DNA from: an uncultured Gammaproteobacteria bacterium
Lineage (GTDB): Bacteria > Patescibacteriota > Patescibacteriia > JAHIZJ01
Length of the DNA stretch: 64,000 nt
Reading direction: 5' to 3'
Assembly (NCBI GenBank): GCA_964371245.1
Contig: CAYJKP010000001.1
Span: forward strand, 53,128-117,127
The position numbers and the translations under genes were made by a program. Positions 9,224 through 59,005 of this stretch are shown one piece after another. Every line of letters starts with the position of its first letter. Positions within the stretch are counted from its first letter, which is position 1. Under the pieces are notes generated by a model. It ran no database searches, was not told where the DNA came from, and saw only the letters and a program-made list of their open reading frames with translations.

Positions 9224-9294
9224 TTTTACTGTTCAGCAAATATATCCATATTTAAAGGGCGAGGACGGTCAGCAGGAGAGCGCCTAAAACGAGC

Positions 9295-9327
9295 GGGGAA
9301 GCGGCCTTGACGTGTTCCTTTTTTTTG
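9295..9327 (+). terminator. weak hairpin plus T8 run after the ligase-like gene
   Basis: Short GGAA/TTCC stem followed by TTTTTTTT. The stem is weak. Confidence 0.3.
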
Positions 9328-9346
9328 CTAAAATAAAGAAACGGAA

Positions 9347-9373
9347 TTAGCACTCGAATTTATGGAGTGCTAA
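9347..9373. promoter_or_regulatory. CIRCE operator (HrcA binding site) TTAGCACTC-N9-GAGTGCTAA
   Basis: Exact match to the CIRCE consensus inverted repeat with a 9-nt spacer, 55 nt upstream of groES. Confidence 0.85.
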
Positions 9374-9427
9374 TATTCGAGAAAAATAGGCTAATTTAAG
9401 GTTAATTTATCCACAAAGGAGAAATGT

Positions 9428-9703
9428 ATGAAGCTGAAACCATTAGGCGATCGCGTGATCGTCAAACCTCTCAAAGACGAAGAGGTGACGAAATCCGGCA
9501 TCGTGTTGCCCGACACGGTTGAAAAAGAGAAGAAAGAACAGGGCGAAATCATAAGCATCGGCAACGGCGAGAAGATTGCCAAACTCGGTCTTACGGTCGG
9601 CGATAAGGTCCTCTTCGGAAAGTATTCCGGTGAAGACGTAAAGGTCGGCGAGGTTGAGTACAAGGTACTCAAAGAGGAAGACGTCTTAGCCGTCATGGAA
9701 TAA
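9428..9703 (+). CDS. groES: co-chaperonin GroES
   Basis: 91 aa with MKLKPLGDRVIVKP...GIVLPD...GDKVLF, the canonical Cpn10 sequence. Sits directly upstream of groEL. Confidence 0.92.
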   Translation: MKLKPLGDRVIVKPLKDEEVTKSGIVLPDTVEKEKKEQGEIISIGNGEKIAKLGLTVGDKVLFGKYSGEDVKVGEVEYKVLKEEDVLAVME

Positions 9704-9715
9704 TTCGAATATTAA

Positions 9716-11374
<1,659 letters not shown>

Positions 11375-45579: not shown

Positions 45580-45651
45580 TCCGCGATAGCTCAATGGTAG
45601 AGCAACCGGCTGTTAACCGGTAGGTTGTCGGTTCGAATCCGACTCGCGGAG
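45580..45651 (+). tRNA. tRNA-Asn (anticodon GUU), no encoded CCA
   Basis: Hand-folded: acceptor TCCGCGA/TCGCGGA, D-stem GCTC/GAGC, anticodon stem ACCGG/CCGGT, loop CTGTTAA, T-loop TTCGAAT. Confidence 0.88.
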
Positions 45652-45659
45652 CTGAGGGG

Positions 45660-45938: not shown

Positions 45939-45967
45939 TTGCTATTTTAATATTTTTGTGATATAAT
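45939..45967 (+). promoter_or_regulatory. sigma70-like promoter TTGCTA-N17-TGaTATAAT (extended -10)
   Basis: Hexamers with a 17-nt spacer and TG at -15/-14, 60 nt upstream of the protease gene. Confidence 0.45.
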
Positions 45968-46027: not shown

Positions 46028-49000
46028 ATGAATAAGCCTATAAAGCTTGGTCTCGCTCTCCTTCTTGGTGCAGCGTTTTTTATTTTGCATAGTAATACCG
46101 CCAGCGCCGAAGATGTAGTCTTACATGGTCGTGAGGCGCAATTGCCGCTCTCAACGTCTGGAAAGGTGGTTGTGAAATATAATGAGCAACTCGTGAAACT
46201 AGCGGAAGAAAGCGGTCAGTATCAGGCTTCGGTCATGGCCGGGGTGCATGCCCTTACCGAAGACGCATTACACGAAGACCAAAACCTTGGCGTTTTTTCG
46301 ATCCGTGACGGCAAAACCATTGCTTCAAAAATTGAAGAATTGCAGCACAACCCACTCGTCGATTACGCCGAGCCGGAATACCTATATTATCCCGAAAGCA
46401 CGACGCCAAATGATTCATACTATTCTCTTCTTTGGGGTTTGAATAACACTGGCCAAACAGTCAACGGCACGAGCGGCACGGCTGATGCTGATATTGACGC
46501 GGCCGAAGCCTGGGATATTGCACGAAACGCGAGCGATACCATCGTGGCGGTCATTGATACGGGCGTCAACCTCAGTCATCCCGAACTATCGGCCAGCATT
46601 GTTCAGGGCTATGATTTTGTTGACGATGATACCTCACCGTATGACGTCGGCGGTCATGGCACGCACGTGGCCGGTACAATCGCCGCGCGTGGGAATAACA
46701 GCGACGGCGTTACCGGTGTTTCCTGGAGCGCGAAAATTATGCCGATCCGCGTCCTCGGCATCGGGGGCGGCACGAACTCGGATATTGCCGACGGTATCCG
46801 CTACGCCGTCGATCATGGAGCAAAAGTACTGAACATGAGTTTGGGCGGGACCGGCTATAGCCAAGTGTTGTATGACGCAATTGATTACGCGAAGACACAC
46901 GACGTGTTAGCCGTGGTCGCCGCCGGAAACGACGGTCGGAACAATGACGGCGGTACCCACACCTATCCCTGCGATTATGACCTCGACAATATTATCTGCG
47001 TCGCAGCAACAACGCAAACTGACGCCCTGGCCAGTTTTTCCAATTACGGTACAACCTCGGTCGACGTGGCGGCGCCGGGTACAAACATCATGAGCACCTA
47101 TCCCGAGCCGGCGCTGATCGAATATTTTGATAATGCCTCGCACGCGACGATGTACGGGTACGATTTCACCGGTACGGACTTTACGGTCAGCGGCGATTCC
47201 GCGCCACAGGGCTGGATCGTCACCGACGTCTCGGGAGACAAATGGGCGCAGGCGTGGTATGGCGGGCCGTACAATAATGTTGATACGTACATTACGTCGA
47301 CGAGCATCAGTCTCAGCGGAGAGCATTCAATTCTCTTGAAATTCACCTACGATTTTTTAACAGAAAGTTCACCCACGGAGGCGTGCGAATACGATTATCT
47401 CGGGATCGACGTGTACAACGGTTCCAGCTGGACGACAGTCGATAAATTATGCAATTATTTCGGTGATCCGTGGGGCGGCGGCGAGGCGTTGGATGTCGCT
47501 GAATATGATCTGTCGGCGTATGCGGCGAGTGCGACCAAGGTCCGATTTCATTGGCACACGGATGCGACGGGCGGCAGTGCAGGCTTTTTTATCAATAATG
47601 TCTTTGTTTATAAAACCGGCGAAAGCTACACCTATCTCAATGGAACTTCAATGGCCACGCCGCACGTCGCCGGTCTGGCCACCTTGCTCCGGGGGTACAA
47701 GCCGAGCGCGAGTTATTCGCTGGTCAAAGAGGCGATAACCGATTCGGTCGACGCAAAGAGCTCACTGAGCGGAAAAATAGTGACCGGCGGCCGGATCAAC
47801 GCCTATGCCGCTGTGTCCTCGCTCGACGGAACGCCACCGACGACGTCGCTGTCGCGCAATCCCAGCGGTCCGAATGGCGACAACGGGTATTATGTGACCG
47901 TTCCCTCAATCACGCTGCGCGCCACCGATTCCGGCTCGGGAGTGGCGAAAACATATTATAAATGGGACAGCGGCACATATTCCGAGTATCACGGCTCAAT
48001 TCCGGCGCCGGAAGGGGTTCATGTGCTCAAATATTATTCAACTGATTTGGCGGGAAATCGCGAAACGACCAAGAATAAAAAATTCAGGGTCGACACCCAT
48101 CACCCGCGGATAGAATTTACCCGTTCACTGTATCGAAACACGACCCTTTCCGCCCAGCGGACAATATCCGGAACGGGCAAGGATGGCGGCTCTCGGCTGA
48201 AGTATGTCATGATGAACGGCACGCTGCTGCCACTGAGCAAAGGGGTATTTAGCACGGCTGTAACCCTGAAGGATGGTTTAAATAAATATACGTTCGTCGC
48301 GAAAGACAACGCTGGCAATAAAACCACAGTGATTAAGTATGCGTATTACCGAAACGGACGCGTGCTCGGCACGGCCGCACCCGTCGAACGTATCATCACA
48401 ACCGCTCATCCCGGTCGTCCTCCTCAGGTCAGGATTTTTGACAAAAAAGGGACGTTGAAAAATCAATGGTTTGCCTACGGGCAAGATTTCAAGACGGGCG
48501 TAAGCTTGGCCACCGGCGACGTGAACAACGACGGTCAAGCCGAGGTGATCGTCGGTCCGGCCGGCGTTGACGCGTCGCTCGTAAAAGTGTTTACCCAGAA
48601 AGGTACCCTTCTAAAACAGTGGTATGCCTATCCGGCTGAGTGGCAGATTGGCGCCACCGTGGCAACAGGCGACGTCAACGGCGACGGGACAATCGAAATC
48701 ATTGTTCTCCCGGCCGTAAAAAAACCGGCCCAAGTAAAAGTATTTACGTATTCAGGCAGGCTCAAATATCAATTCTTTGCTGACACGGCGCCCACCTTGC
48801 TGAATCTGGCCGTCGGCGACGTCAACGGCGATTGGAAAGACGAAATCATTGTTTCAGCGACAGCCGGCTCCGGACCTGAGGTGCGCGTTTATACCTACAA
48901 AGGGAAATTGGCTTATCGCTTCAATGCCTATGCCCCGGGTTTCCGCGGCGGCGTTGAAATTGCAGCCGGTGATGTAAATAACGATAAAAAAGACGAGATT

Positions 49001-49270
49001 ATTACGGGCGTCATGGGTGCTGGCACCAGCCAGGTTCGGGTTTTTAAAAGGGATGGTACGGCCATAAACCAATTTTTTGCCTATGACCTGAGTTACCGTG
49101 ACGGCGTGACGATGGCCTCGGCCGACATCAATGGTGACGGCAAAGATGAAATAATCACTGGGACGGCGCCGGGGCAATCAGGCATTGTTAGGACGTTTAA
49201 GAAAGACGGTTCGCGCGTAAGCCAATTTTTCGCCTTTCCAAAGGAATGGCCGATCGGCGTGAAACTATAA
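46028..49270 (+). CDS. secreted subtilisin-like (S8) serine protease with C-terminal FG-GAP repeat beta-propeller
   Basis: Signal peptide. I9-like propeptide. Catalytic triad motifs AVIDTGV, HGTHVAGT and GTSMATPHVAG. Five or more GDVN(G/N)DG..EII FG-GAP repeats. Confidence 0.85.
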   Translation: MNKPIKLGLALLLGAAFFILHSNTASAEDVVLHGREAQLPLSTSGKVVVKYNEQLVKLAEESGQYQASVMAGVHALTEDALHEDQNLGVFSIRDGKTIASKIEELQHNPLVDYAEPEYLYYPESTTPNDSYYSLLWGLNNTGQTVNGTSGTADADIDAAEAWDIARNASDTIVAVIDTGVNLSHPELSASIVQGYDFVDDDTSPYDVGGHGTHVAGTIAARGNNSDGVTGVSWSAKIMPIRVLGIGGGTNSDIADGIRYAVDHGAKVLNMSLGGTGYSQVLYDAIDYAKTHDVLAVVAAGNDGRNNDGGTHTYPCDYDLDNIICVAATTQTDALASFSNYGTTSVDVAAPGTNIMSTYPEPALIEYFDNASHATMYGYDFTGTDFTVSGDSAPQGWIVTDVSGDKWAQAWYGGPYNNVDTYITSTSISLSGEHSILLKFTYDFLTESSPTEACEYDYLGIDVYNGSSWTTVDKLCNYFGDPWGGGEALDVAEYDLSAYAASATKVRFHWHTDATGGSAGFFINNVFVYKTGESYTYLNGTSMATPHVAGLATLLRGYKPSASYSLVKEAITDSVDAKSSLSGKIVTGGRINAYAAVSSLDGTPPTTSLSRNPSGPNGDNGYYVTVPSITLRATDSGSGVAKTYYKWDSGTYSEYHGSIPAPEGVHVLKYYSTDLAGNRETTKNKKFRVDTHHPRIEFTRSLYRNTTLSAQRTISGTGKDGGSRLKYVMMNGTLLPLSKGVFSTAVTLKDGLNKYTFVAKDNAGNKTTVIKYAYYRNGRVLGTAAPVERIITTAHPGRPPQVRIFDKKGTLKNQWFAYGQDFKTGVSLATGDVNNDGQAEVIVGPAGVDASLVKVFTQKGTLLKQWYAYPAEWQIGATVATGDVNGDGTIEIIVLPAVKKPAQVKVFTYSGRLKYQFFADTAPTLLNLAVGDVNGDWKDEIIVSATAGSGPEVRVYTYKGKLAYRFNAYAPGFRGGVEIAAGDVNNDKKDEIITGVMGAGTSQVRVFKRDGTAINQFFAYDLSYRDGVTMASADINGDGKDEIITGTAPGQSGIVRTFKKDGSRVSQFFAFPKEWPIGVKL

Positions 49271-49295
49271 TTTGCGAGTAATAACGCAATAACAA

Positions 49296-49322
49296 AAAAC
49301 CGGCTATGAGTCGGTCTTTTGT
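49296..49322. terminator. possible bidirectional terminator between convergent genes
   Basis: AAAAAACCGGCTATGAGTCGGTCTTTT: a short stem flanked by A- and T-runs. Confidence 0.3.
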
Positions 49323-49996
49323 TATGAATTTTCTAATCGGCGGTGTCTGATATGTCGCCAGACATACCAGATTATTACCAGTATGATGAAAAGCCCGATA
49401 GTCAGATCAAATTTATGCAGTTTTTCACGAATCAACTCCCAATGGTCACCCATTTTTATTCCGAGCCAGGCAAAGAGAGCGGTCCAGGGCAGGGCGCCAA
49501 AAAAAGTGAAAATCGAAAACCGTTTCAGATTCATCTTCGCGATGCCAGCCGGAAAGGAAATGTATGTTCGCACGATCGGCAAAAGCCGTCCGAAGAACAC
49601 GGTCCAGTCGCCGTACTTCGTGAACCAGCGGTCAGCCAGGTCGAGATCGTGTTTGGAAATTAATATGTACTTGCCGTATTTTTCGATCAGCGGCCGTCCA
49701 CCCTTCAGGCCGATCCAATAGGCGAGCAGTGAGCCAACGAGATTGCCGAATGTTCCGGCCAGCGTAATCAGCCAAAACGACATCTTTCCTGCCGAAACCA
49801 AAAAGCCGGAAAACGGCATGATCACCTCGGAGGGCATCGGAATTCCGCAACTCTCAACCAGCATCAGGAAAAATACGCCGGGATAGCCGATGGCGTCAAT
49901 TGTTTGCGTTACGATTCGCGCGAGAAAATCTATTACGTCGGTCACCATAATGATAGGTTCGTTGTTGTTTGCATCATTGTACCATAAAGTTGCCAA
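49322..49996 (-). CDS. DedA/SNARE-associated (TVP38) family membrane protein
   Basis: FFLMLVESCGIPMPSE and GRLLPIVRTYISFPAG motifs. Confidence 0.75.
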   Translation of the reverse strand: MATLWYNDANNNEPIIMVTDVIDFLARIVTQTIDAIGYPGVFFLMLVESCGIPMPSEVIMPFSGFLVSAGKMSFWLITLAGTFGNLVGSLLAYWIGLKGGRPLIEKYGKYILISKHDLDLADRWFTKYGDWTVFFGRLLPIVRTYISFPAGIAKMNLKRFSIFTFFGALPWTALFAWLGIKMGDHWELIREKLHKFDLTIGLFIILVIIWYVWRHIRHRRLENS

Positions 49997-50051
49997 TGAA
50001 GATAGACAAAACGGGGAAAAACTGCTATAATGAAGGAGTTAAAAAAACGAA

Positions 50052-51935
50052 ATGAAGACAAAACGAATAATAATTATTGCCACATCATTCATTATCGGTC
50101 TGCTTGTGGTTTCCGGAGCAGCCGTTTATTTTTTTCTCTGGCAGCCAAAAGTAACATTGGTTTCGCCGGCGGACGAGGCGACTCAGGTTGCGCTTGACGC
50201 AACGATTCTCATCCGGTTTGATAAACCAATCAATCGCCGCGCGCTCGTTCCGAGATTGACACCGGATTTGGACGGCGAGTGGAGTTATGAATCGCCGCTG
50301 GCTGGCCGTCAAATGTATCAAGCCATTCGGTTTGTGCCCAACCGCGTTTTTGAGCCGAGCACCCGGTACACTGTGGCCCTGGAAGGAATTACTGACCTGG
50401 CGCAGTACGCGCAGCCAAAAACCTATACCATTACCTTTATCACCCAAGAATTGCCAACAGTCTCAAGCGTGGCGCCAGCTGACGGCTCAACGACAGTGTC
50501 ACCGCAGACGAACATCGAAATCGCCTTGACTGGAGCGAATCACGACTATGCCGAGTTTGAGGTTGTTTTCGATCCAGCGATTGCCTACACGCCGCGGCAA
50601 AACGAGACACTGGATCGATATACGATTATTCCTGATACCAAGTTCAACCAGGGTGCAACCTATACACTGACCATCAACCGTTCGTTTGTTGTCCGGGATC
50701 GACAAACGCAGGTCATTACCTATCGAGGCGAGCCCGAAAAAATGTATCAGGGAACTTTTACGATCGCGCCGCCGCCGCGGGCTGAAAAAGTATATCCGAC
50801 CGGCGAACAGGTATTCACTGACGAAAAACCGACGCTAATGTTTACCGAACCGATGGATAGCGCTAGTTTAAATGAACATTTCATCGTCACGCCCGTTATC
50901 GCCGGGGAGCTCTCATTGTCTGATGATCAATCGACCGCCACCTTCACGCCCGCCGTCGCGTTGACTTTTGATACCGACTATCGCATAACAGTCACCGCTG
51001 GCGCCGAAAATGCGAATGGGGGATTTTTACCGGAAGACGTTACCTACACGTTTCATACCATCGGCCCGGTCGAGGCGACGCACCATGCACCGTCGGACGG
51101 AGCCACCGGCGTAGCGATCGGCAGCAGCATCGCGGTATCGTTTAATCAGGCGGTTGATCGCGCCTCAGCTGAAAAGGCGTTCATTACCGAACCGGCGATC
51201 TACGGATCATTTACCTGGAACGATCAAACCATGACGTTCAAACCAAACAACGCGCTGTTGTTTGATACAACCTATCAGGTTCGGCTCACCAGCGGCATTC
51301 AAAGCATTCGTGGCCAAAATTCCCGGGCAACCTACGGTTTCACATTCGCAACAGCGCCGTCGACCGTGAAGCTCAACGTTGCCATCGACTTACAAGACCA
51401 CGCTTTATCATGTGAAGCCGCCGCGCTGAAAATGGCCCTGGCAAATAAAGGCGTGCGCGTGTCAGAAAACGATATTATGAACTATGTCGGATTCGATCCG
51501 ACGCCACACAAGGGCTCAACCTGGGGCGATGCCTATCGCGCATACGTCGGCGACATCAACGGCCGGCAAAATACTACCGGTTATGGCGTCTATTGGGATC
51601 CGATCGCGCAAGCGGCCAATCATTGGCGCCCAAGCCAAGCCTTCACTGGTTGGACCGCGAGCCAGGTCGCTGAGGAAATTGACAGCGGAAATGCCGTTGT
51701 GATCTGGGGAGTGTACGGCCGGGGCTATGAAGATTCATGGTACACGCCGACGGGAAAATACATCTATGCTTGGAAAGGCGAGCATGCCCGAACGGTCATC
51801 GGTTTTATTGGGAGCGTCGACAATCCGATCAAGTTTATCATCAATGATCCCTATGCCGGTCAGATAACCTGGACGAAAGCGCAACTTGAAAGCAACTGGG
51901 GAATATTTGGCAATGCTGGAGTAGTCGTGCGGTAG
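50052..51935 (+). CDS. secreted protein with SbsA-type Ig-like repeats and C-terminal peptidase C39-like domain
   Basis: Signal/anchor. Four or more repeats of the P.DG.T.V.....I...F...M type. C-terminus has Cys (HALSCEAAALKMAL) and downstream His/Asp, resembling YvpB/C39_2. Confidence 0.5.
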   Translation: MKTKRIIIIATSFIIGLLVVSGAAVYFFLWQPKVTLVSPADEATQVALDATILIRFDKPINRRALVPRLTPDLDGEWSYESPLAGRQMYQAIRFVPNRVFEPSTRYTVALEGITDLAQYAQPKTYTITFITQELPTVSSVAPADGSTTVSPQTNIEIALTGANHDYAEFEVVFDPAIAYTPRQNETLDRYTIIPDTKFNQGATYTLTINRSFVVRDRQTQVITYRGEPEKMYQGTFTIAPPPRAEKVYPTGEQVFTDEKPTLMFTEPMDSASLNEHFIVTPVIAGELSLSDDQSTATFTPAVALTFDTDYRITVTAGAENANGGFLPEDVTYTFHTIGPVEATHHAPSDGATGVAIGSSIAVSFNQAVDRASAEKAFITEPAIYGSFTWNDQTMTFKPNNALLFDTTYQVRLTSGIQSIRGQNSRATYGFTFATAPSTVKLNVAIDLQDHALSCEAAALKMALANKGVRVSENDIMNYVGFDPTPHKGSTWGDAYRAYVGDINGRQNTTGYGVYWDPIAQAANHWRPSQAFTGWTASQVAEEIDSGNAVVIWGVYGRGYEDSWYTPTGKYIYAWKGEHARTVIGFIGSVDNPIKFIINDPYAGQITWTKAQLESNWGIFGNAGVVVR

Positions 51936-51953
51936 AGATTGTTAAGCAATAAA

Positions 51954-51986
51954 AAATGGCTCATTTGCAGCCATTATTTTTTATTT
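51954..51986 (+). terminator. rho-independent terminator
   Basis: AATGGCT-CATTTGC-AGCCATT stem-loop followed by ATTTTTTATTT. Confidence 0.6.
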
Positions 51987-52211
51987 GTCTCCAAAAGAAA
52001 AACTCCCCAGCGGTTCTCGGGATGAACCACTGAGGAGCGTGTGGCCGGTCCCCCCTCCGGACTGTGTTTCGGCCACGTTACTATGGTATGAACGAATAGA
52101 CACGTTCTGATAGCGTTTAATGACTTCTATTGATAGGGCACCAGTTGTTTCGGATTCAATGGTAGGGATTAATTGACGCCGTGTCAAGACTACCGCGATC
52201 GGGTTTGAATA

Positions 52212-52220
52212 TGGTATAAT
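52212..52220 (+). promoter_or_regulatory. extended -10 element TGgTATAAT upstream of the giant gene
   Basis: TGnTATAAT 36 nt upstream of the ATG. No good -35. Confidence 0.35.
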
Positions 52221-52255
52221 AACAGCACCTTTTTTAATACTAAATCAAGAAAACC

Positions 52256-55200
52256 ATGAACTCAGTAAAAAATTCCAGTCAAAAAACCGGGAAATTTTTA
52301 CGCGCCCAGAAAAAAGTAAAAGGTCCGGCGTCGTCTTCTCGAACCTTGCGAAAAACACAGGGTGGATTTGCCCTACTCGGAAAGCAATTTTTACCCATTA
52401 TTATTGTTCTCATTATAGCCGTCCTGGCTGCGGCTGTACTGCTCTATCGCCAGTCCAGCCAGTCAAACTATGCCGGCATTACTCGACCGGAGCTGACCGG
52501 ACAATTCGGATTGAAGGCGGTTAAGACCGATTCGGCCGGGATTGAGCCAACCACTACCTTTTTGTTAAGCTCGAATCGATCACTCTCAGCCGATGTTATC
52601 GAAGAATTGGTTACTTTTTCGCCGGAAGTGAAATATAAAGTCCGCAAACTGAAGGAAGAATCTTCTTTTAACGGTTTTTTGAGCAAAGTATTCGCCCAAG
52701 AGCCCAATACGAACAACACGAATGGGGAATCAGCCGTTAGCTCATATGAATTAAAGCCTGTCACGGCGCTCCACGAAGACACGAACTATCAAGTAACCAT
52801 TGCAAAAACAAAGTACTCGGACCGGGAATATCAGTGGGCTTTTCCGGTAAAGGCAAAGTTCCAGGTTCTGGAATCGCATCCTCGGCACCAGGCGACCTAT
52901 GTGCCGACAAATTCTACCGTTGAGATCACGATGAATCGAGAGAAATTTATCACCCCGGAAAAACATTTCTCACTCTCCCCGAATGTTGAGGGTACGCTCG
53001 AGCAGCACGGCAACCGGCTTGTTTTTTTGAGCAACCAACTGGCTGAAAAAACAGTTTATACCGCAACGCTAAAAAAGGGATTGAAGGTTGAGGGCAGTGA
53101 TGAAGAATTAACGCAAGACTATACCTTCAGTTTTGAGACAAGCGAATCGACGTATTCGTCGGGCCGAGCTCAATTTCGATTTAATTCGGACTTCCTGGAA
53201 TTTCTGCCGGACAAACAACCCTATTTCAGCGTCTACTATTATAATTTTGAACCCAAGGATCTCCAGGCAAATTTATACCGCTTTGATAAAGCCGATCAGT
53301 TTATATCCGCCTACCAAAACAGCCGCAACTGGAATCTCCGCTGGACGCATTTCACCTGGGAGGGAGCGGGCAGCCAATATGAGCCGGATCCCGATCAGCT
53401 GATGCTTACGTTTCCAGTCAATATTGTCCAGGTTGATTATCAGAAATTTTTTGAGGTGCCCCAAAAACTTGACCCGGGCTATTATCTCATCGATCTCCAG
53501 GCGGCTGACCAGCGTCACCAAGTCTGGTTGCAAATCACCCCAGTCTCACATTATTTTTCGGTCACGCACGAAAACAGTCTTGTCTGGCTGGCTGACTTTC
53601 CAAGTAAAGAGCCAACGCAGAATACCCAGATAACCTTTGTTGATCAGGCTGGTGAAGACGTAAAACTTGGCAAAACTGACTCGAATGGCCTGATCCAATT
53701 TGCCACACCAACGAGCCTAACCCAGTCCGTCATCGCTTCCCCGACGCCAAAATTTATCAAAGCCGCAACCGAGGACCAGCCGCTCTATATCCGGGTAAGC
53801 GACAAATACGGCTATCGCTCGACAGCGGCCGAGGGTGATCCGTACTGGGACTACTTGTCACTTGATCGCTATGTCTATCAGATGACGGATACGGTTCGGT
53901 TTTGGGGCGTTGTCCAAGGGCGGACCGAGGACATGCGCGAGAAAAAGGTGACGGCGGCAATTACGAGCGGGTATTATTATTACAATGAAGACGGATCGCA
54001 ATCGGATTTGCCGGTTCTGCAAAGCAAAGAGGTCGTTGTCTCGCCGTTTAACACGATTGAAGGCGATCTCTCGTTTACCGGATTAACGCCTGGAACGTAC
54101 AACGTCATGGTTCGTGACGGCGAGCGAACAATTTCCTCGGCGACCTTTGAAGTCATGACCTATATCAAGCCGGCCTATCAAATCACCGTGACGCCATCGA
54201 AACAGGCTATTTTTGCAGGCGAGCCGATCGACTTCGCGGTCCAGGCGAAGTTCTACGACGGTACGCCGGTACCGAATATCGCGCTGAAATATTACAGCTG
54301 GTGGAACGATGCCGTCCAAGGCGAGCTGAAATTGGACAGCGACGGCGAAGGTACGTTTACGTACACGCCAGCCTATACCGAGAGCGACTATCAATACTAT
54401 CCACGATACTTCGAAATGACGTTTTCGCCGTCCTTGGCTGAGGAAGGGGAGATTTCCGGCGCGGGCGGCGTCCTCGTTTTCGGACCGCATATGTCGCTTG
54501 AAACGAAATCAACCTACACCGGCGATCATAACTATCTCTTTACTGCGAAACTGAATTCGATCGTGTTGAAAGACTTGCCGACCAGTAATAATGGTAATTC
54601 CGATTCGTATTCCTTGTTGTCCGAATACATTGGCGAGCCTGTGCCGGACCACGTTCTTAACGCAAAAGTAGTAAAAACAACCATTCAAAAGATCGAGGAC
54701 GGGACATACTATGACCCGATCAATCGAGTCAACCAGAAGAAATATCGGTATGAATCGAAAGACGATATCATTGAGGAGCTGCAGGGGAAGACTGACGCAA
54801 ACGGCGAGTGGAGTTTTACCAGAGAATATCCCTATCAGGAGCTTGTTGGTTACCGAGTTGAATGTACGGGTCAGGATCAAGAGGGTCGGAACTTCAAATC
54901 CACCCAGTACATGTATTCTGGCGAAGGGTATATTCCGGGCAAGGAATTTAATGCGATACTCAGCCTGAACAACAATAACGGGACGACCCAATATTCAGTC
55001 GACGACCCGGTCAAACCTGAAGTACGCATTACCCTGGGACAATTGCCTGAAAAGTCGAAAATACTTTATTATCGTCGCCAAAACCAGATCGACAAAACCT
55101 GGGTGACGTCGGATCTAACGCTGGAAGAGAATTTTTCCCAGCAGTTTGTTCCCTCTGTTACGTATCGGGCAGTAATGCTCGGTCCGACTGGTTTTGTGGA

Positions 55201-57799
55201 AACGGGTGACGAGACGGCAGCATTTAAGAAAACCGACCGAGCGCTGTCAATAGAAATAAATCCGGATAAAACCGGCTATCGACCGGGTGAAAAAGTTACT
55301 CTGAACGTAGCCGTAACCGATAAAGACAAGAAGCCGGTTGCGGCCCAGGTCAATCTGGCCGCTGTTGACGAGGCGCTCTTCCACGTCGTGCCGTATTCTT
55401 GGCAACCAAAGATTCTCGACAGCCTCTACCGGAACGTAACCGTGTGGCCGCTTTCCGGCGCATCTGATTACGCCTTATTGGAGCAGGGGGCTGAACGCGG
55501 CGGCTGTTTCGGGGCGGATACCGCCATCCTCATGGCTGATAAAAAGACCAAGCCGATCCAAGATATCAAAGTGGGCGATACCGTTCTCGCTTCAGCGGGC
55601 GATGGCACAACTGTCGTGAAACCAGCCGTCGTTCAAGGGACGTCCGTTCACCTGGTGAATACGTTCCTCGTCATTAACGGCTCGCTCGTCGTCACGCCGG
55701 AACACCCACTCTTTGCGAATGATCGCTGGCAGCCGGCTGGAAACCTGAAAACAGGCGATGTCTTATTGGGCAGCGATGGAAAAGCCAAGCCGATTGAGTC
55801 AGTCGTGACGACGACGGATCGCTCAATCCCGGTCTATAATCTCGTTGTCGGCACGTATCATACCTATTTTGCCAATGGCCTCCTGGCTCATAATGCCGAA
55901 AAGGCCGGTGGCCCACGTTCCAACTTTGTCGATGTTGCGCTCTATCAGACCATTGAAACCAACATGAGCGGCCAAGGTTCAGCTACCTTTACCGCACCCG
56001 ACAATCTTACCTCCTGGCGGGTCACTGCCCTGGCGTACGACCCTGATCTGATTCTGGCTGGCCAAACGGCCAAGCTCGTGCCAGTCGCACTGCCGCTGTT
56101 CGTCGACAGTACCTTGAACTCATTCTATCGGACAAATGACAAACCGATTGTTCGAGTACGCGCCTTTGGCAACGATTATCAGGTCGGTCAGGCGACGGAT
56201 TTCGCTCTAACCAGCACCTCGCTCAACCTCAATCTCGCCAAAACCTCGACTGACCGGGAAGTACGTTTTGATCTCGGCGCAATCCCGGCCGGTGACCATG
56301 ATATTACGGTTGGCGTAAAGCAAGGTCAGGCTCAGGATTCCGTAAAACGTCAACTCCAGGTAATCGATAATCACTTCCGGATCGTTCAAGCCAAAGAATA
56401 CGCCGTCACCAATGACCTGAAAGACATCGAAGGGAACACCCAGGCCTACACCCACCTGGTATTTGCCGACGCCGGCCGTGGCAAATATTTTCAGCCACTC
56501 CTTGAGCTCAGTTACGAAACGGGCGTTCGCTCGGATCAAACGGCGGCTGCGTACACGGCGAATGCGTTGCTCGAAAAATATTTCAAATACCCGGCGCCCG
56601 AGCCGCTTGATCTCTCCGGGTTTCAGGTCCAGGATACCGGCGCTTTAGCGCTCTTTCCGTATAGCGATAGCGATTTAGAAGTCTCGGCAAAACTCGCTGA
56701 TTTGGCTCGAGCCAACGTGCCCGAAGCCGAGCTGAACCGGTATTTCACAACCTCTCTCTCGGACGATAAAGCCGATCTCAATCGGATTAGTAAGGCACTC
56801 TATGGCTTGGCGAGTCTGGGCGAGCCGGTTCTCGCGAAGATCCAAACCGTGCTTCAGCAATCAGAGTTATCAGTGGAAGACCGTCTCTATCTGGCCATCG
56901 GTTTGATCAGGCTGGGCGATCAGGAAGGGGCGAGACTCGTGTATCAAGATGCCATTCGAATAAATCTCCGTTTTGAAGGGGGCGAGGCGTGGCTGGAAAG
57001 CGAGAGCGATCTGACGCGTCGAGTAAAACTCACCGGTTTATCGGGCATTCTCGCGGCTGAGTTAAAATTAACGGATGACGCCAACGCACTCTGGAGCTAC
57101 CTGTCTGGTCACTACCCAGAAACCGATCTTGACGGTATCGAGCGCGCCTTGATGATCCGGGCGCTCCTGGTCATGGCCGATCCGTCGGCAGCCAGTTTTA
57201 CCTACGATACCGGTAGCCGAAAGGAAACCGTCAAATTAGAGAACGGCGCTACATACGCGCTTGATTTGGCGGCTGTGGAATTGACTGCTCTCCGTTTCAG
57301 CGATGTCACAGGCAATATCGTGCTGGTCAGCTGGTTTGAGCGGAGTAAGAATCCGGAGGAACTCCCCCGCAACCCCGATCTCGTTTTGACTCGAAAGTAC
57401 CTCGTGAATGATAAGCCGACGACGACGTTTGCTGAGGGGGATATTGTTAAGGTTCGCCTCGATCCGAATATTGGCGCGAACGCCATCGACGGCTTGTACC
57501 AGGTGACGGATTATCTGCCGAGTGGCTTGCGACCAATCACTCAACTGTATAATCGAAATTTATCGTCTGGTACGGAATGCGATCCGATCTGGTACCCGTC
57601 CATGATCATGAACCAGAGCGTGTATTTCACCATCGGAAAGGACTTTGATCGCACCCCTGACTGCACAAACCGAACGCTCAACTATTACGCCCGGGTTGTT
57701 AGCCCCGGCGGATACTCGGCCGAACCGGCAGTCATCCAGTCGCTCAAGAATCTCACGAGCTTAAACTTAACCGACGCACATAATATTACGATTAAGTAG
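52256..57799 (+). CDS. giant alpha-2-macroglobulin-family protein (thioester-less) with embedded Hint domain
   Basis: 1847 aa with an N-terminal TM anchor. RSNFVDVALYQ...TAPDNLTSW matches the A2M-domain start (RxYFPETWxW...VPDxITxW). No CGEQ motif seen. Confidence 0.7.
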   Translation: MNSVKNSSQKTGKFLRAQKKVKGPASSSRTLRKTQGGFALLGKQFLPIIIVLIIAVLAAAVLLYRQSSQSNYAGITRPELTGQFGLKAVKTDSAGIEPTTTFLLSSNRSLSADVIEELVTFSPEVKYKVRKLKEESSFNGFLSKVFAQEPNTNNTNGESAVSSYELKPVTALHEDTNYQVTIAKTKYSDREYQWAFPVKAKFQVLESHPRHQATYVPTNSTVEITMNREKFITPEKHFSLSPNVEGTLEQHGNRLVFLSNQLAEKTVYTATLKKGLKVEGSDEELTQDYTFSFETSESTYSSGRAQFRFNSDFLEFLPDKQPYFSVYYYNFEPKDLQANLYRFDKADQFISAYQNSRNWNLRWTHFTWEGAGSQYEPDPDQLMLTFPVNIVQVDYQKFFEVPQKLDPGYYLIDLQAADQRHQVWLQITPVSHYFSVTHENSLVWLADFPSKEPTQNTQITFVDQAGEDVKLGKTDSNGLIQFATPTSLTQSVIASPTPKFIKAATEDQPLYIRVSDKYGYRSTAAEGDPYWDYLSLDRYVYQMTDTVRFWGVVQGRTEDMREKKVTAAITSGYYYYNEDGSQSDLPVLQSKEVVVSPFNTIEGDLSFTGLTPGTYNVMVRDGERTISSATFEVMTYIKPAYQITVTPSKQAIFAGEPIDFAVQAKFYDGTPVPNIALKYYSWWNDAVQGELKLDSDGEGTFTYTPAYTESDYQYYPRYFEMTFSPSLAEEGEISGAGGVLVFGPHMSLETKSTYTGDHNYLFTAKLNSIVLKDLPTSNNGNSDSYSLLSEYIGEPVPDHVLNAKVVKTTIQKIEDGTYYDPINRVNQKKYRYESKDDIIEELQGKTDANGEWSFTREYPYQELVGYRVECTGQDQEGRNFKSTQYMYSGEGYIPGKEFNAILSLNNNNGTTQYSVDDPVKPEVRITLGQLPEKSKILYYRRQNQIDKTWVTSDLTLEENFSQQFVPSVTYRAVMLGPTGFVETGDETAAFKKTDRALSIEINPDKTGYRPGEKVTLNVAVTDKDKKPVAAQVNLAAVDEALFHVVPYSWQPKILDSLYRNVTVWPLSGASDYALLEQGAERGGCFGADTAILMADKKTKPIQDIKVGDTVLASAGDGTTVVKPAVVQGTSVHLVNTFLVINGSLVVTPEHPLFANDRWQPAGNLKTGDVLLGSDGKAKPIESVVTTTDRSIPVYNLVVGTYHTYFANGLLAHNAEKAGGPRSNFVDVALYQTIETNMSGQGSATFTAPDNLTSWRVTALAYDPDLILAGQTAKLVPVALPLFVDSTLNSFYRTNDKPIVRVRAFGNDYQVGQATDFALTSTSLNLNLAKTSTDREVRFDLGAIPAGDHDITVGVKQGQAQDSVKRQLQVIDNHFRIVQAKEYAVTNDLKDIEGNTQAYTHLVFADAGRGKYFQPLLELSYETGVRSDQTAAAYTANALLEKYFKYPAPEPLDLSGFQVQDTGALALFPYSDSDLEVSAKLADLARANVPEAELNRYFTTSLSDDKADLNRISKALYGLASLGEPVLAKIQTVLQQSELSVEDRLYLAIGLIRLGDQEGARLVYQDAIRINLRFEGGEAWLESESDLTRRVKLTGLSGILAAELKLTDDANALWSYLSGHYPETDLDGIERALMIRALLVMADPSAASFTYDTGSRKETVKLENGATYALDLAAVELTALRFSDVTGNIVLVSWFERSKNPEELPRNPDLVLTRKYLVNDKPTTTFAEGDIVKVRLDPNIGANAIDGLYQVTDYLPSGLRPITQLYNRNLSSGTECDPIWYPSMIMNQSVYFTIGKDFDRTPDCTNRTLNYYARVVSPGGYSAEPAVIQSLKNLTSLNLTDAHNITIK
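55505..55894 (+). other. Hint / bacterial intein-like (BIL) domain inside the A2M-family CDS
   Basis: In-frame 130-aa segment CFGADTAIL...VVTPEHPLF (TxxH block B)...VYNLVVGTYHTYFANGLLAHN (blocks F/G ending His-Asn). The +1 residue is Ala. Confidence 0.7.
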
Positions 57800-57815
57800 A
57801 CTCGCGTCAGTCAGT

Positions 57816-58700
57816 GTGCTAATTGGGCTCCTCTGCCTCATTGGCGGAGGAGCTTGGTTGATACTGGCGCCAAAAAAGTCGACCGGGGAAAATGTAGCCA
57901 GCGTAAATTCTCAACAGCCTCAAACGATCCGGTCAACTGGTTTTTTTGAATACACGGAAGCCATTGACCGTGTTTTTTCTGAAACGCAACCGGCGTCGTT
58001 TGCCGACCAGACACCCGTTCAGCTTGGCCTTACCTCGCATCATCTTCCGACCGCCGCTCCATTGATCGCACGATTTTATGCCACTCTGCAGAAGCAATTG
58101 GGACCGCGAAAAACGTTCGTTATTGTTGGGCCCGATCACGCTGAACGTTGCCCTCAATATGTAACCACGACCGCTCTTCCATATCAAACACCCTACGGTC
58201 TGTTACCGATTGATCCGGAGGTATCAGCGGCCGCGCAGGCGGCTGGCGCAGCCATCAGCGAAGGTTGTTTTATAGGCGAGCATTCAACGAGCGTTCAAGC
58301 ACTCTTTGTTCGGCGGAACTTTCCCGAGGCACTGGTCGTGCCGATACTCTTATCCTCAGCGACAAGCGATGAGTCGCTGCGCCGACTCGCCCAAGCGCTC
58401 TCGGCCCGGTCGGATTCGATCACCGTTATTGGCAGCGTCGATTTTTCTCACGCCCTGCCAGCAGCCGAGGCGCGACAACGCGATGCTGCAACCGATCAAA
58501 TATTGCTCAAGCAAAACGTATCTAGCCTAACACTTGATCAGGTCGATTCGCCGCCGACATTGAAACTCCTGTATTTGTTAAATCAGCGGTTAGGGAATAA
58601 CCCCCCGGTAATTTTTGATCGTGCAAATACAGTTGATTATACCGGTGCGGCTGAGAACACAACCGGCTATAGAAACATGATGTTTTTTAATTCGGAGTAG
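57816..58700 (+). CDS. Memo-like (AmmeMemoRadiSam system protein B-like) protein
   Basis: N-terminal TM helix. LTSHHLP and VIVGPDH resemble the MEMO1 APHAGYTY / ILGPSHH blocks. Confidence 0.45.
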   Translation: MLIGLLCLIGGGAWLILAPKKSTGENVASVNSQQPQTIRSTGFFEYTEAIDRVFSETQPASFADQTPVQLGLTSHHLPTAAPLIARFYATLQKQLGPRKTFVIVGPDHAERCPQYVTTTALPYQTPYGLLPIDPEVSAAAQAAGAAISEGCFIGEHSTSVQALFVRRNFPEALVVPILLSSATSDESLRRLAQALSARSDSITVIGSVDFSHALPAAEARQRDAATDQILLKQNVSSLTLDQVDSPPTLKLLYLLNQRLGNNPPVIFDRANTVDYTGAAENTTGYRNMMFFNSE

Positions 58701-58744
58701 ACAAAAATAATAAAACATGGTAAAATAGATATGAAGGAGAAACC

Positions 58745-59005
58745 ATGACTGCTAATTTAACACAAAAAACGATCGAGCAGTTTTTTCAGGAAAATAATGT
58801 ACCTGAGGATAAACGGGAGAAGGTACTGATGACCGTGACCAATCTGGTCTATGAACGGAACATGCACGTGATCGATTGGGAGAAGGCGGACGGCGAGGAA
58901 AAAGCCAAGCTCGAAGTGCTTATTGCCGACAAAGAGAAAACCATCAATCAGAAGGTCGCCGACATTCTCAACGGCAAAGACGTGGAAATTCATTATGACT
59001 TCTAA
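58745..59005 (+). CDS. small hypothetical protein
   Basis: 86-aa acidic ORF with an RBS (GAAGGAGAAACC). The stop overlaps the gpmI start. Confidence 0.4.
   Translation: MTANLTQKTIEQFFQENNVPEDKREKVLMTVTNLVYERNMHVIDWEKADGEEKAKLEVLIADKEKTINQKVADILNGKDVEIHYDF

Follow-up and report, generated by a model that had tools for sequence, protein, structure and literature searches.

The window analyzed here is a 64,000 nucleotide (nt) stretch of a Patescibacteria (candidate phyla radiation, CPR) genome, in which five open reading frames (ORFs) of interest were located at positions 46028-58700. In order, these specify an S8 subtilase, a DedA/VTT membrane protein, an anchored protein with a C39-like C-terminus, a large protein of the alpha-2-macroglobulin (A2M) fold which carries a Hint domain, and a Memo-like protein (Table 1). 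A first-pass annotation had presented the genes for the first and the last three of these as a single surface proteolysis and protection module. Its ORF positions and all of its domain calls held when the ORFs were checked and compared with Pfam and NCBIfam, and these include the A2M-family giant with its Hint and the two assignments, C39-like and Memo-like, which it had named as possible failures. The grouping itself did not hold: the conserved unit is a two-gene module, consisting of the A2M-like and Memo-like genes, amid lineage-specific secreted-protease genes.

The gene arrangement was compared across 75 loci on contigs representing one genome per species, which were retrieved by means of the A2M-like protein (using a profile from nine close sequences). 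The loci were searched with every window protein, and all of their ORFs were also clustered without prior assumptions. The sole recurrent neighbor family was the Memo-like one, found in 59 of the 75 loci and always immediately downstream on the same strand, with gaps that are mostly -4 (an ATGA overlap), -1 or 0 to +8 nt. The pairing is found across many lineages of Patescibacteria and in some Bacillota. One of the pairs without a Hint (L062) belongs to the cultured 'Candidatus Formimonas warabiya' DCMF. Eight metagenome-assembled genomes with the Patescibacteria-type pair (L023, L024, L026, L029, L031, L042, L051 and L077) are labeled "uncultured Gammaproteobacteria bacterium" and are probably mislabeled bins. 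When the look-up was reversed, four of six Memo-like proteins picked independently of the A2M search proved to be encoded directly behind an A2M-like gene; in the other two cases the Memo-like gene follows one for a DUF3160 protein. The functional link between the two genes that was originally suggested is thus supported by synteny, by the tight gaps and by the reverse look-ups, and the pair is probably translationally coupled. The absence of a PBP1C partner was likewise borne out, with no PBP gene within approximately 10 kb on either side, nor any recurrent among the 75 loci.

Of the loci lacking a Memo-like gene, most either break off at the A2M-like gene or come from a group of Bacillota without a Hint. 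Genuine exceptions are L007 and L046, and L015 keeps only a Memo-like fragment. A 288 amino acid ORF downstream of the A2M-like gene in L007 was considered as a divergent Memo and rejected (hhalign probability 0.2). Loci L085 (333-2585) and L088 (675-3191) encode transmembrane-anchored DUF3160 proteins right before more distant members of the window protein's own Memo-like subfamily, with or without a PGA_cap domain. The notion that DUF3160 is a hidden relative of A2M or of its TED domain was discarded (hhalign probability 0.3).

At the junction of the pair in the window, the GTG from which the Memo-like protein is counted follows the A2M-like stop codon after a 16-nt spacer, so that coding begins at the 17th nt, as had been reported. 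No promoter- or terminator-like site was found there by our scan. The Memo-like frame is open upstream of this GTG and is conserved at the amino acid level (LRLS[RK]LAS.S.LIGLL, window 57780-57830) with L012, the 96% relative, which has CTC at the position of the window GTG codon (57816). The start codon is uncertain, and the real one may be non-canonical and overlap the A2M-like stop. A fusion of the two products through frameshifting was rejected, other loci having ordinary ATGA overlaps and separate N-terminal anchors.

The A2M-like protein is a member of the alpha-2-macroglobulin superfamily at the level of fold. Its family profile matched YfhM/ECAM (2.8e-24) and Salmonella A2M (4.6e-18) in the PDB, as well as CD109, TEP1, human A2M and C5. 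In addition, an AlphaFold2 (AF2) model of residues 700-1847, with a predicted local distance difference test score (pLDDT) of 85.9, gave ECAM (5.6e-36) and 4u48 (5e-33) as the top Foldseek matches. It is a type II membrane-anchored protein with a basic cytoplasmic tail (residues 1-44), one transmembrane helix (45-63) and the bulk of the chain outside; beyond the helix the domain order is MG domains, BRD, Hint, MG7, a CUB-like region, a TED-like alpha/alpha domain and MG10. No lipobox was found at the N-terminus, which instead has the basic tail and the single helix. The CxEQ thioester motif was not found in the window protein or in its 41 closest homologs (P0001-P0041); it is present in more distant ones. 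The equivalent site of the window protein reads GVRSDQ (residues 1423-1428), of which the Arg is invariant.

Two types of bacterial A2M invite comparison. With type I proteins (ECAM/YfhM and SaA2M), its best sequence and structure matches, the window protein shares the multi-MG/BRD/TED/C-terminal MG fold, a disordered bait linker at the equivalent position and a membrane-tethered, envelope-facing location. Type I proteins, however, have CxEQ, a lipobox and an adjacent pbpC gene, whereas here we find GVRSDQ, a transmembrane helix, a Hint in the bait and a Memo-like partner gene. The type II proteins (Pseudomonas MagD and E. coli YfaS) resemble it in lacking the thioester while possessing a bait region (PMC5764988). 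They are encoded in the six-gene mag/yfa operon with accessory proteins, among which the membrane-anchored MagB is needed for stability and localization, and MagD still traps protease after bait cleavage and needs a transmembrane partner (PMC5764988). The partner in the window is a different one, a Memo-fold enzyme, and MagA, B, C, E and F are not among its neighbors; moreover, the host of MagD is Gram-negative and that of the window is not, and only the window protein has a Hint in the bait. The A2M-like protein is therefore neither type I nor a mag-operon type II protein, although the loss of the thioester is common to it and type II. Within the CPR, the predator Vampirococcus lugosii encodes giant A2M-domain membrane proteins, for which a defense against host proteases was proposed (PMC8080830). 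These are likewise large CPR membrane proteins; neither a Hint domain nor a Memo-like partner is mentioned for them (PMC8080830).

The Hint of the window protein is 130 amino acids long without an insert, and no homing endonuclease domain was found in it. Its residues are Cys1 (C1084), T1147-x-x-H1150 and H1212-N1213, followed by A1214-E-K1216. The junction dipeptide site (A1214-E1215-K1216) is at window positions 55895-55903. Cys1, the TxxH motif and the C-terminal His-Asn are present in 59 of 59 Hint carriers and a Gly occupies the -1 position in 58 of them; the +1 residue is Ala (23), Glu (17), Gln (12) or Asp (7), with Cys, Ser and Thr in none of the 59. The domain is beta-rich and was modeled by AF2 with confident pLDDT. 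When the Hint family profile was compared with the PDB, the best match was the bacterial intein-like (BIL) domain 2LWY (1e-17), followed by the Hints of toxin proteins, the best canonical intein scoring 3.3e-9.

Type A BILs are defined by a His-Asn without a +1 nucleophile, and act by an N-terminal thioester and Asn cyclization (PMC4031507). As His-Asn is present here and the +1 nucleophile absent, the Hint is, to judge from its residues, a type A BIL domain with intact catalytic residues under purifying selection. The products of such domains are mainly those of cleavage, with some splicing by aminolysis (PMC4031507, reviewing Amitai 2003 and Dassa 2004). Like the Clostridium thermocellum BIL (2LWY), the window domain is a mini Hint with Cys1 and His-Asn, no endonuclease and an exported host protein; unlike known BILs, it has an A2M-fold host, a fixed site inherited across a phylum-level radiation and an invariant [E/D]K after the junction. 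A canonical class 1 intein was rejected, given that Cys, Ser or Thr is never at +1.

The Hints of polymorphic toxins (PT-HINT, PF07591; PDB 6Y75/6TMM and 8W20) are the best-scoring Pfam family and the second-best PDB matches. NCBI labels the A2M-like protein as a "polymorphic toxin-type HINT domain-containing protein", and a 135 amino acid PT-HINT protein was the sole match when the Hint by itself was used as the query of a word-indexed search. Polymorphic toxins carry a toxin domain and are accompanied by an immunity gene, and the window protein is without both. This identity was rejected: there is no C-terminal toxin domain, MG7, the TED-like domain and MG10 follow the Hint, and the downstream gene is Memo-like.

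When 42 family members were aligned, the Hint fell at one identical site in all carriers. This is a Gly-rich linker that joins the BRD to the MG domain after it, with the pattern GAE+GG before the Hint (C...HN) and (A/Q/E)EKGG...R..F.D after it. The divergence of the Hint is correlated with that of its host (r = 0.78), and it is the more conserved of the two (44% versus 35% mean identity). In a rough neighbor-joining tree, the carriers group in a single large clade of Patescibacteria, within which three or four groups without a Hint are nested, and the basal Bacillota members are Hint-less. An [E/D]K directly after the junction was observed in 56 of 56 Hint-bearing versus 7 of 42 Hint-less proteins. 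Five of these seven constitute a nested clade (L050, L052, L056, L057 and L066; YGGGG-AEKGGGG), whose C-flank AEKGGG looks like a scar of Hint loss. These sequence patterns give the Hint the look of a BIL that has been domesticated, passed on vertically and kept at one functional site.

The usual trigger for an A2M-family protein is cleavage of its bait by a foreign protease. The AF2 model of residues 700-1847 gives both flanks of the Hint pLDDT values under 50, and the linker on the N-terminal side ends in ASDYALLEQGAERGG at the junction between G1083 and C1084. With the Hint removed, the linker (SGASDYALLEQGAERGG joined to AEKAGGPRSNFVD) aligns with GQGRLAALRFGGDGDELKRGGKPPVNHVN of ECAM at an E-value of 0.008. 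In ECAM the bait is disordered from R923 to L942; once the bait is cleaved, R956, G958 and N963 bind to the C-terminal MG domain and displace the TED, which leads to activation (PMC4498604). We located these three residues in RGGKPPVN of ECAM by counting positions in the alignment. From the alignment and the ECAM structure we infer that the Hint junction lies within the bait, a few residues upstream of the equivalent of R956-N963. Members of the Bacillota with an anti-sigma-type N-terminus (L053, L060, L061, L068, L069 and P0024) have variable inserts of 30-60 amino acids exactly at the Hint position; the site is therefore an insertion hotspot, as expected of a bait loop.

The Memo-like partner scored 60.7 bits against Pfam PF01875 (cutoff 27) and 77.2 bits against TIGR04336 (cutoff 26). 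Its AF2 model (pLDDT 90) best matched MEMO1 (TM-score 0.69), followed by LigB-type dioxygenases, and H108 and H212 align with H81 and H192 of MEMO1. Among 162 representatives, conservation is 93% or higher at each of the residues H75, H76, H108, E155, H156, D209, H212, D223, D244, N271, T283 and Y285, and H108, D209, H212, D223 and D244 are invariant. The invariant Asp of a D-S-P motif (D244) probably replaces the MEMO1 ligand Cys244 (in a Cys-Gly motif), as judged by motif position only; the motif suggests a 2-His-1-carboxylate metal site.

An exhaustive profile search revealed 747 Memo-like clusters at E <= 1e-30. In 15 of the 59 loci (e.g., L008 15484-17265 and L050 14813-16594) the Memo-like domain is fused to a C-terminal PGA_cap (CapA-like) domain, and all eight full-length Memo-like proteins longer than 500 amino acids that were scanned are such Memo and PGA_cap fusions. 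P0097 (L086 6396-8669), encoded right behind a Hint-bearing A2M-like gene, possesses Memo, PGA_cap and YkuD L,D-transpeptidase domains. The window copy has neither fusion. Since homologs have N-terminal anchors, the window protein has an N-terminal hydrophobic segment and the fusion partners are extracytoplasmic, we place the Memo-like protein outside the membrane. It shares its fold and conserved His ligands with MEMO1 and the AmmeMemoRadiSam protein B (PF01875, TIGR04336). It differs from MEMO1 in being extracytoplasmic and anchored, in the D244 that probably takes the place of Cys244, in the pairing of its gene with an A2M-like or DUF3160 gene and in its frequent fusion to PGA_cap. AmmeMemoRadiSam systems pair with AMMECR1 and a radical SAM protein. 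No AMMECR1-like sequence was found in the window (tblastn E >1), and neither an AMMECR1 nor a radical SAM gene was found among the neighbors or the recurrent neighbors of the 75 loci. No functional description of AmmeMemoRadiSam or of DUF3160 was found in the literature.

Taking these observations together, we propose, at a probability of roughly 55%, that the two genes, conserved as a pair, specify an envelope module whose bait contains the means of its own cleavage. Once the protein had been exported by Sec, folding of the Hint would be followed by an N-S acyl shift between G1083 and C1084; N1213 would then cyclize, cutting the chain between N1213 and A1214. Standard intein splicing would be impossible since +1 is never a nucleophile. 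The outcome would be mostly self-cleavage, although aminolysis, a route reported for type A BILs, could religate a minority. The membrane-bound MG1-BRD fragment and the C-terminal MG7/TED-like/MG10 fragment would probably stay associated.

A comparable arrangement is that of complement proteins C3, C4 and C5, in which furin cuts at a linker that topologically matches the A2M bait and the two chains stay together. A cut at the same topological place would likewise lead to a two-chain mature form of the window protein. In C3, C4 and C5 it is made by a separate convertase, whereas here it would be autocatalytic through the Hint, and the window protein is without an anaphylatoxin domain. The new N-terminus (AEKAGGPRSNF) aligns with RGGKPPVN, the bait segment which docks on the C-terminal MG domain in ECAM, and Asn cyclization would thus free an untethered bait end of the kind that drives ECAM activation. 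The Hint would in this way amount to built-in bait cleavage, maturing or priming the protein without a foreign protease.

The second component would be the Memo-fold enzyme with its putative His/His/Asp site, anchored and translationally coupled to the A2M-like gene. The fusions to CapA-like (PGA_cap) and L,D-transpeptidase domains in relatives point to the cell envelope as its probable site of action. With A2M-PBP1c of the Proteobacteria, which is regarded as a "defend and repair" pairing, there would be a parallel.

Several points weigh against this proposal. The inference of one gain and several losses of the Hint is derived from a crude neighbor-joining tree, and in several nested clades the Hint has been precisely lost while the gene and its Memo-like partner persist, so the Hint must be dispensable for the core function of the pair. 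The ECAM alignment that places the Hint site is weak, and the analogy with ECAM docking may not transfer to the A2M-like family. The more distant Memo-like genes pair with DUF3160 rather than with an A2M-like gene, and an envelope role read from fusion partners is guilt by association. Furthermore, splicing of a type A BIL would simply regenerate a protein of the Hint-less type.

That last point leads to a second interpretation, in which the Hint is a domesticated but neutral passenger that splices itself out by type A aminolysis, leaving a single-chain product which traps proteases non-covalently in the manner of MagD. Splicing of type A BILs in spite of the missing +1 nucleophile is documented (PMC4031507), trapping by MagD needs no thioester (PMC5764988) and CPR A2M membrane proteins have been proposed as a defense against host proteases (PMC8080830). 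It would also accommodate the Hint-less relatives, some of them nested in Hint-bearing clades, that have the same linker (GAEKGG-EGGG) and the Memo-like partner. Without a homing endonuclease, however, a neutral passenger would be expected to degenerate, and the Hint is instead more conserved than its host with all catalytic residues retained. Selection for clean splicing predicts Cys, Ser or Thr at +1 in at least some members, and the mainly cleaving behavior of type A BILs (PMC4031507) also speaks against it. On balance we regard the passenger hypothesis as doubtful.

Perhaps the A2M-like protein is not so much an inhibitor as a transmembrane sensor of protease attack or envelope damage, in which the Hint provides a constitutive site-1 cut and separation of the halves upon a stimulus sends a signal through the cytoplasmic tail. 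Autoproteolytic anti-sigma factors such as RsgI, and receptors of the SEA or GAIN type, are analogous. In 14 loci a gene for an extracytoplasmic function (ECF) sigma factor lies directly upstream of the A2M-like gene, and these include L060, L061, L068 and L069 in the Bacillota and L013-L018, L032, L040 and L043 in the Patescibacteria. At the N-terminus of the Bacillota members of this set is a zf-HC2 anti-sigma motif (HLTECPDCL; PF13490 in P0024), and one Hint-bearing Patescibacteria clade in it has a conserved N-terminal cytoplasmic peptide (MDIIDKIFSKL). In the lineages with an ECF sigma factor, the A2M-like ectodomain appears to be the sensor of an anti-sigma factor. The 44 amino acid basic cytoplasmic tail of the window protein is also conserved among its relatives, but it has no zinc-finger motif. 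In the window the A2M-like gene has no ECF sigma gene beside it, and the upstream rpoD belongs to a housekeeping dnaG-rpoD pair. Most loci are without a sigma factor, and the Memo-like partner is left unexplained. For the window protein, a sensor is therefore unlikely.

A further idea, which we consider quite improbable, is that the reactive group once supplied by CxEQ is now supplied by the Hint. In the exposed bait loop, the backbone thioester of Gly1083-Cys1084 at its tip would be resolved by an outside amine, in preference to water or the new N-terminus of the protein itself, and the Gly-Gly C-terminus of the membrane-anchored fragment would be ligated covalently to a target. Candidate amines may be a lysine of the attacking protein, a peptidoglycan stem peptide of the cell itself or of its host, or, two to three residues past the junction, the invariant Lys. 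Preparing or accepting the product might fall to the partner of the Memo/CapA/L,D-transpeptidase type. If true, this would be Hedgehog- or ubiquitin-like transfer by a macroglobulin.

The remaining features of the region are collected with those already discussed in Table 1.

Table 1. Genes and sequence features at 46028-58700 of the window
Feature	Position	Strand	Basis
S8 subtilase, 1080 amino acids	46028..49270	+	Pfam Peptidase_S8 E 7e-56, FG-GAP E 7.9e-21
DedA/VTT membrane protein, UptA-like	49322..49996	-	PF09335 E 4e-25
Big_5/C39-like anchored protein, 627 amino acids	50052..51935	+	Pfam Big_5 E 2.7e-48 (4 stretches), C39_2 E 1.2e-15
Hairpin and T-run in the C39-like/A2M-like spacer	52002..52038	-	15-pair terminator-like site
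Extended -10 promoter-like element TGGTATAAT	52212..52220	+	By-eye identification in the sequence
A2M-fold protein with Hint, 1847 amino acids	52256..57799	+	Pfam A2M_BRD, bMG3, A2M, bMG10, PT-HINT
Gly-rich bait-equivalent linker, residues 1065-1083	55448..55504	+	AF2 pLDDT <50; ECAM alignment
Mini Hint, residues C1084-N1213, 130 amino acids	55505..55894	+	PF07591 51.7 bits (cutoff 27.7)
Memo-like protein, 294 amino acids counted from GTG	57816..58700	+	Pfam Memo E 1.7e-16; TIGR04336

The upstream flank of the region is of a housekeeping nature (dnaG, rpoD and tRNA-Asn), and downstream there are a small ORF, iPGM, and genes for a dual-specificity phosphatase (DSP), a pseudouridine synthase, a rhomboid protease and FabH. 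The tRNA-Asn (GTT) is located at 45580-45652, between rpoD and the S8 gene, and was the sole match in an Rfam scan of the region. The small ORF (58745-59005, 86 amino acids) has no family match; it is kept in L012 (97%) and L006 (67%), and it overlaps the start of the iPGM gene. A promoter-like site ahead of it (58698-58726) falls within the 3' end of the Memo-like gene.

The S8 protein has a cleavable signal peptide (cleavage between ASA and ED) and an intact catalytic triad of D177, H210 and S541 in the motifs DTG, HGTH and GTSMA (190 bits in Pfam). The catalytic domain carries an insert, and Ig-like/OmpL47-type domains and C-terminal FG-GAP repeats are also present. Five or more of these repeats had been claimed, and we counted five [GA]D[VI]N[NG]D calcium motifs, at residues 830, 881, 930, 981 and 1032. 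The DedA gene, called in the source contig as 49322-49948 (208 amino acids), is on the minus strand, convergent with the S8 gene, as had been described, and divergent from the C39-like gene. Its product matched NCBIfam UptA, an undecaprenyl-phosphate transporter, at E 3.8e-54 and 183.8 bits, which is under the curated cutoff of 250. Apart from the two closest relatives, L012 and L006/L084, no locus keeps DedA upstream of the A2M-like gene, and it is the sole upstream neighbor common to the window and the 62% relative.

The third gene product, predicted earlier as an SbsA-Ig protein with a YvpB/C39-like C-terminus, indeed shows an N-terminal anchor, four Big_5 (SbsA-Ig) stretches and a C-terminal Peptidase_C39_2 domain (PF13529, YvpB-type; 58.7 bits, cutoff 24). 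Its single Cys is Cys454 in LSCEAAAL, a motif of the catalytic type, and His578 is in GEHAR (both read by eye). The signal peptide and topology check that had been called for gave a cleavable signal for the S8 protein, an N-terminal anchor for the C39-like protein, one transmembrane helix for the A2M-like protein and an N-terminal hydrophobic segment for the Memo-like protein.

The first-pass claim of promoters and terminators between the genes stands in part. The best plus-strand promoter-like sites are upstream of the S8 gene (45939-45967) and of the C39-like gene (50003-50031), and terminator-like hairpins follow both genes (49299-49315 and 51955-51975, respectively). An extended -10 element (TGGTATAAT), read by eye, precedes the A2M-like start codon by 36 nt; the consensus scan did not call it because it lacks a -35 match. 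On the other side, the total counts of promoter- and terminator-like sites were not above those of shuffled controls (16 versus 13.2±4.0; 20 versus 16.9±3.8), and the A2M-like/Memo-like junction, as noted above, has neither.

The spacer between the C39-like and A2M-like genes is 320 nt long and differs between strains. In L012 a minus-strand ORF for a lipoprotein-like product (9261-9845, 194 amino acids), which is missing in the window, lies between the two genes. The hairpin of the window spacer is 98.5% identical to L012 9178-9243 and is unique in the window; the rest of the spacer could not be aligned. On this match it is taken to be the leftover terminator of the lipoprotein-like gene that L012 has kept, and a small RNA was rejected on the same ground.

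Adjacency of the S8, DedA and C39-like genes to the A2M-like gene is not conserved. The S8 and C39-like genes lie beside it only in the 96% relative (L012/L089) and are absent there in 73 of the 75 loci. The 62% relative keeps DedA upstream and the small ORF, iPGM and DSP genes downstream, and has a DUF5661 gene and a T4SS-pilin-like gene in the S8/C39-like place. Around six C39-like orthologs (L090-L095, 42-50% identity; up to 10 kb of flank each) no S8, DedA, A2M or Memo gene was found. The S8 and C39-like genes are thus lineage-specific neighbors outside the conserved module. The reading of the first-pass annotation, by which the S8, C39-like, A2M-like and Memo-like proteins form one proteolysis-protection module whose inhibitor controls or shields against the neighboring proteases, draws on the export or anchoring of all four from the same strand, on the plausible juxtaposition of a protease with a protease-inhibitor fold and on the arrangement retained in the 96% relative, but given this distribution, the separate promoter- and terminator-like sites of each gene and a strain-variable spacer that houses a minus-strand gene in the closest relative, it is very improbable, and the tempting four-gene "module" can be dropped from consideration.

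In the searchable literature on macroglobulins with Hint, intein, Patescibacteria or CPR, neither a Hint or BIL in an A2M bait nor a partnership with a Memo-like protein was found to be described; the closest trace is one passing mention of CPR A2M-domain membrane proteins (PMC8080830). The locus is a combination of known kinds (bacterial A2M, type A BIL and Memo family) and not a new category. With respect to macroglobulins, a large Patescibacteria clade carries a Hint exactly in what we take to be the bait, under strong selection, which raises the question whether autoproteolysis stands in place of activation by a protease, be it for maturation, for priming a trap or for sensing. With respect to inteins, a domesticated BIL without a +1 nucleophile in any member is unusual, and may be of use in protein engineering. 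For the CPR, a widespread surface module of A2M-like and Memo-like proteins, which is also found in some Bacillota, is now defined, and a possible role in the envelope can be assigned to a Memo-fold family of 747 clusters without described function.

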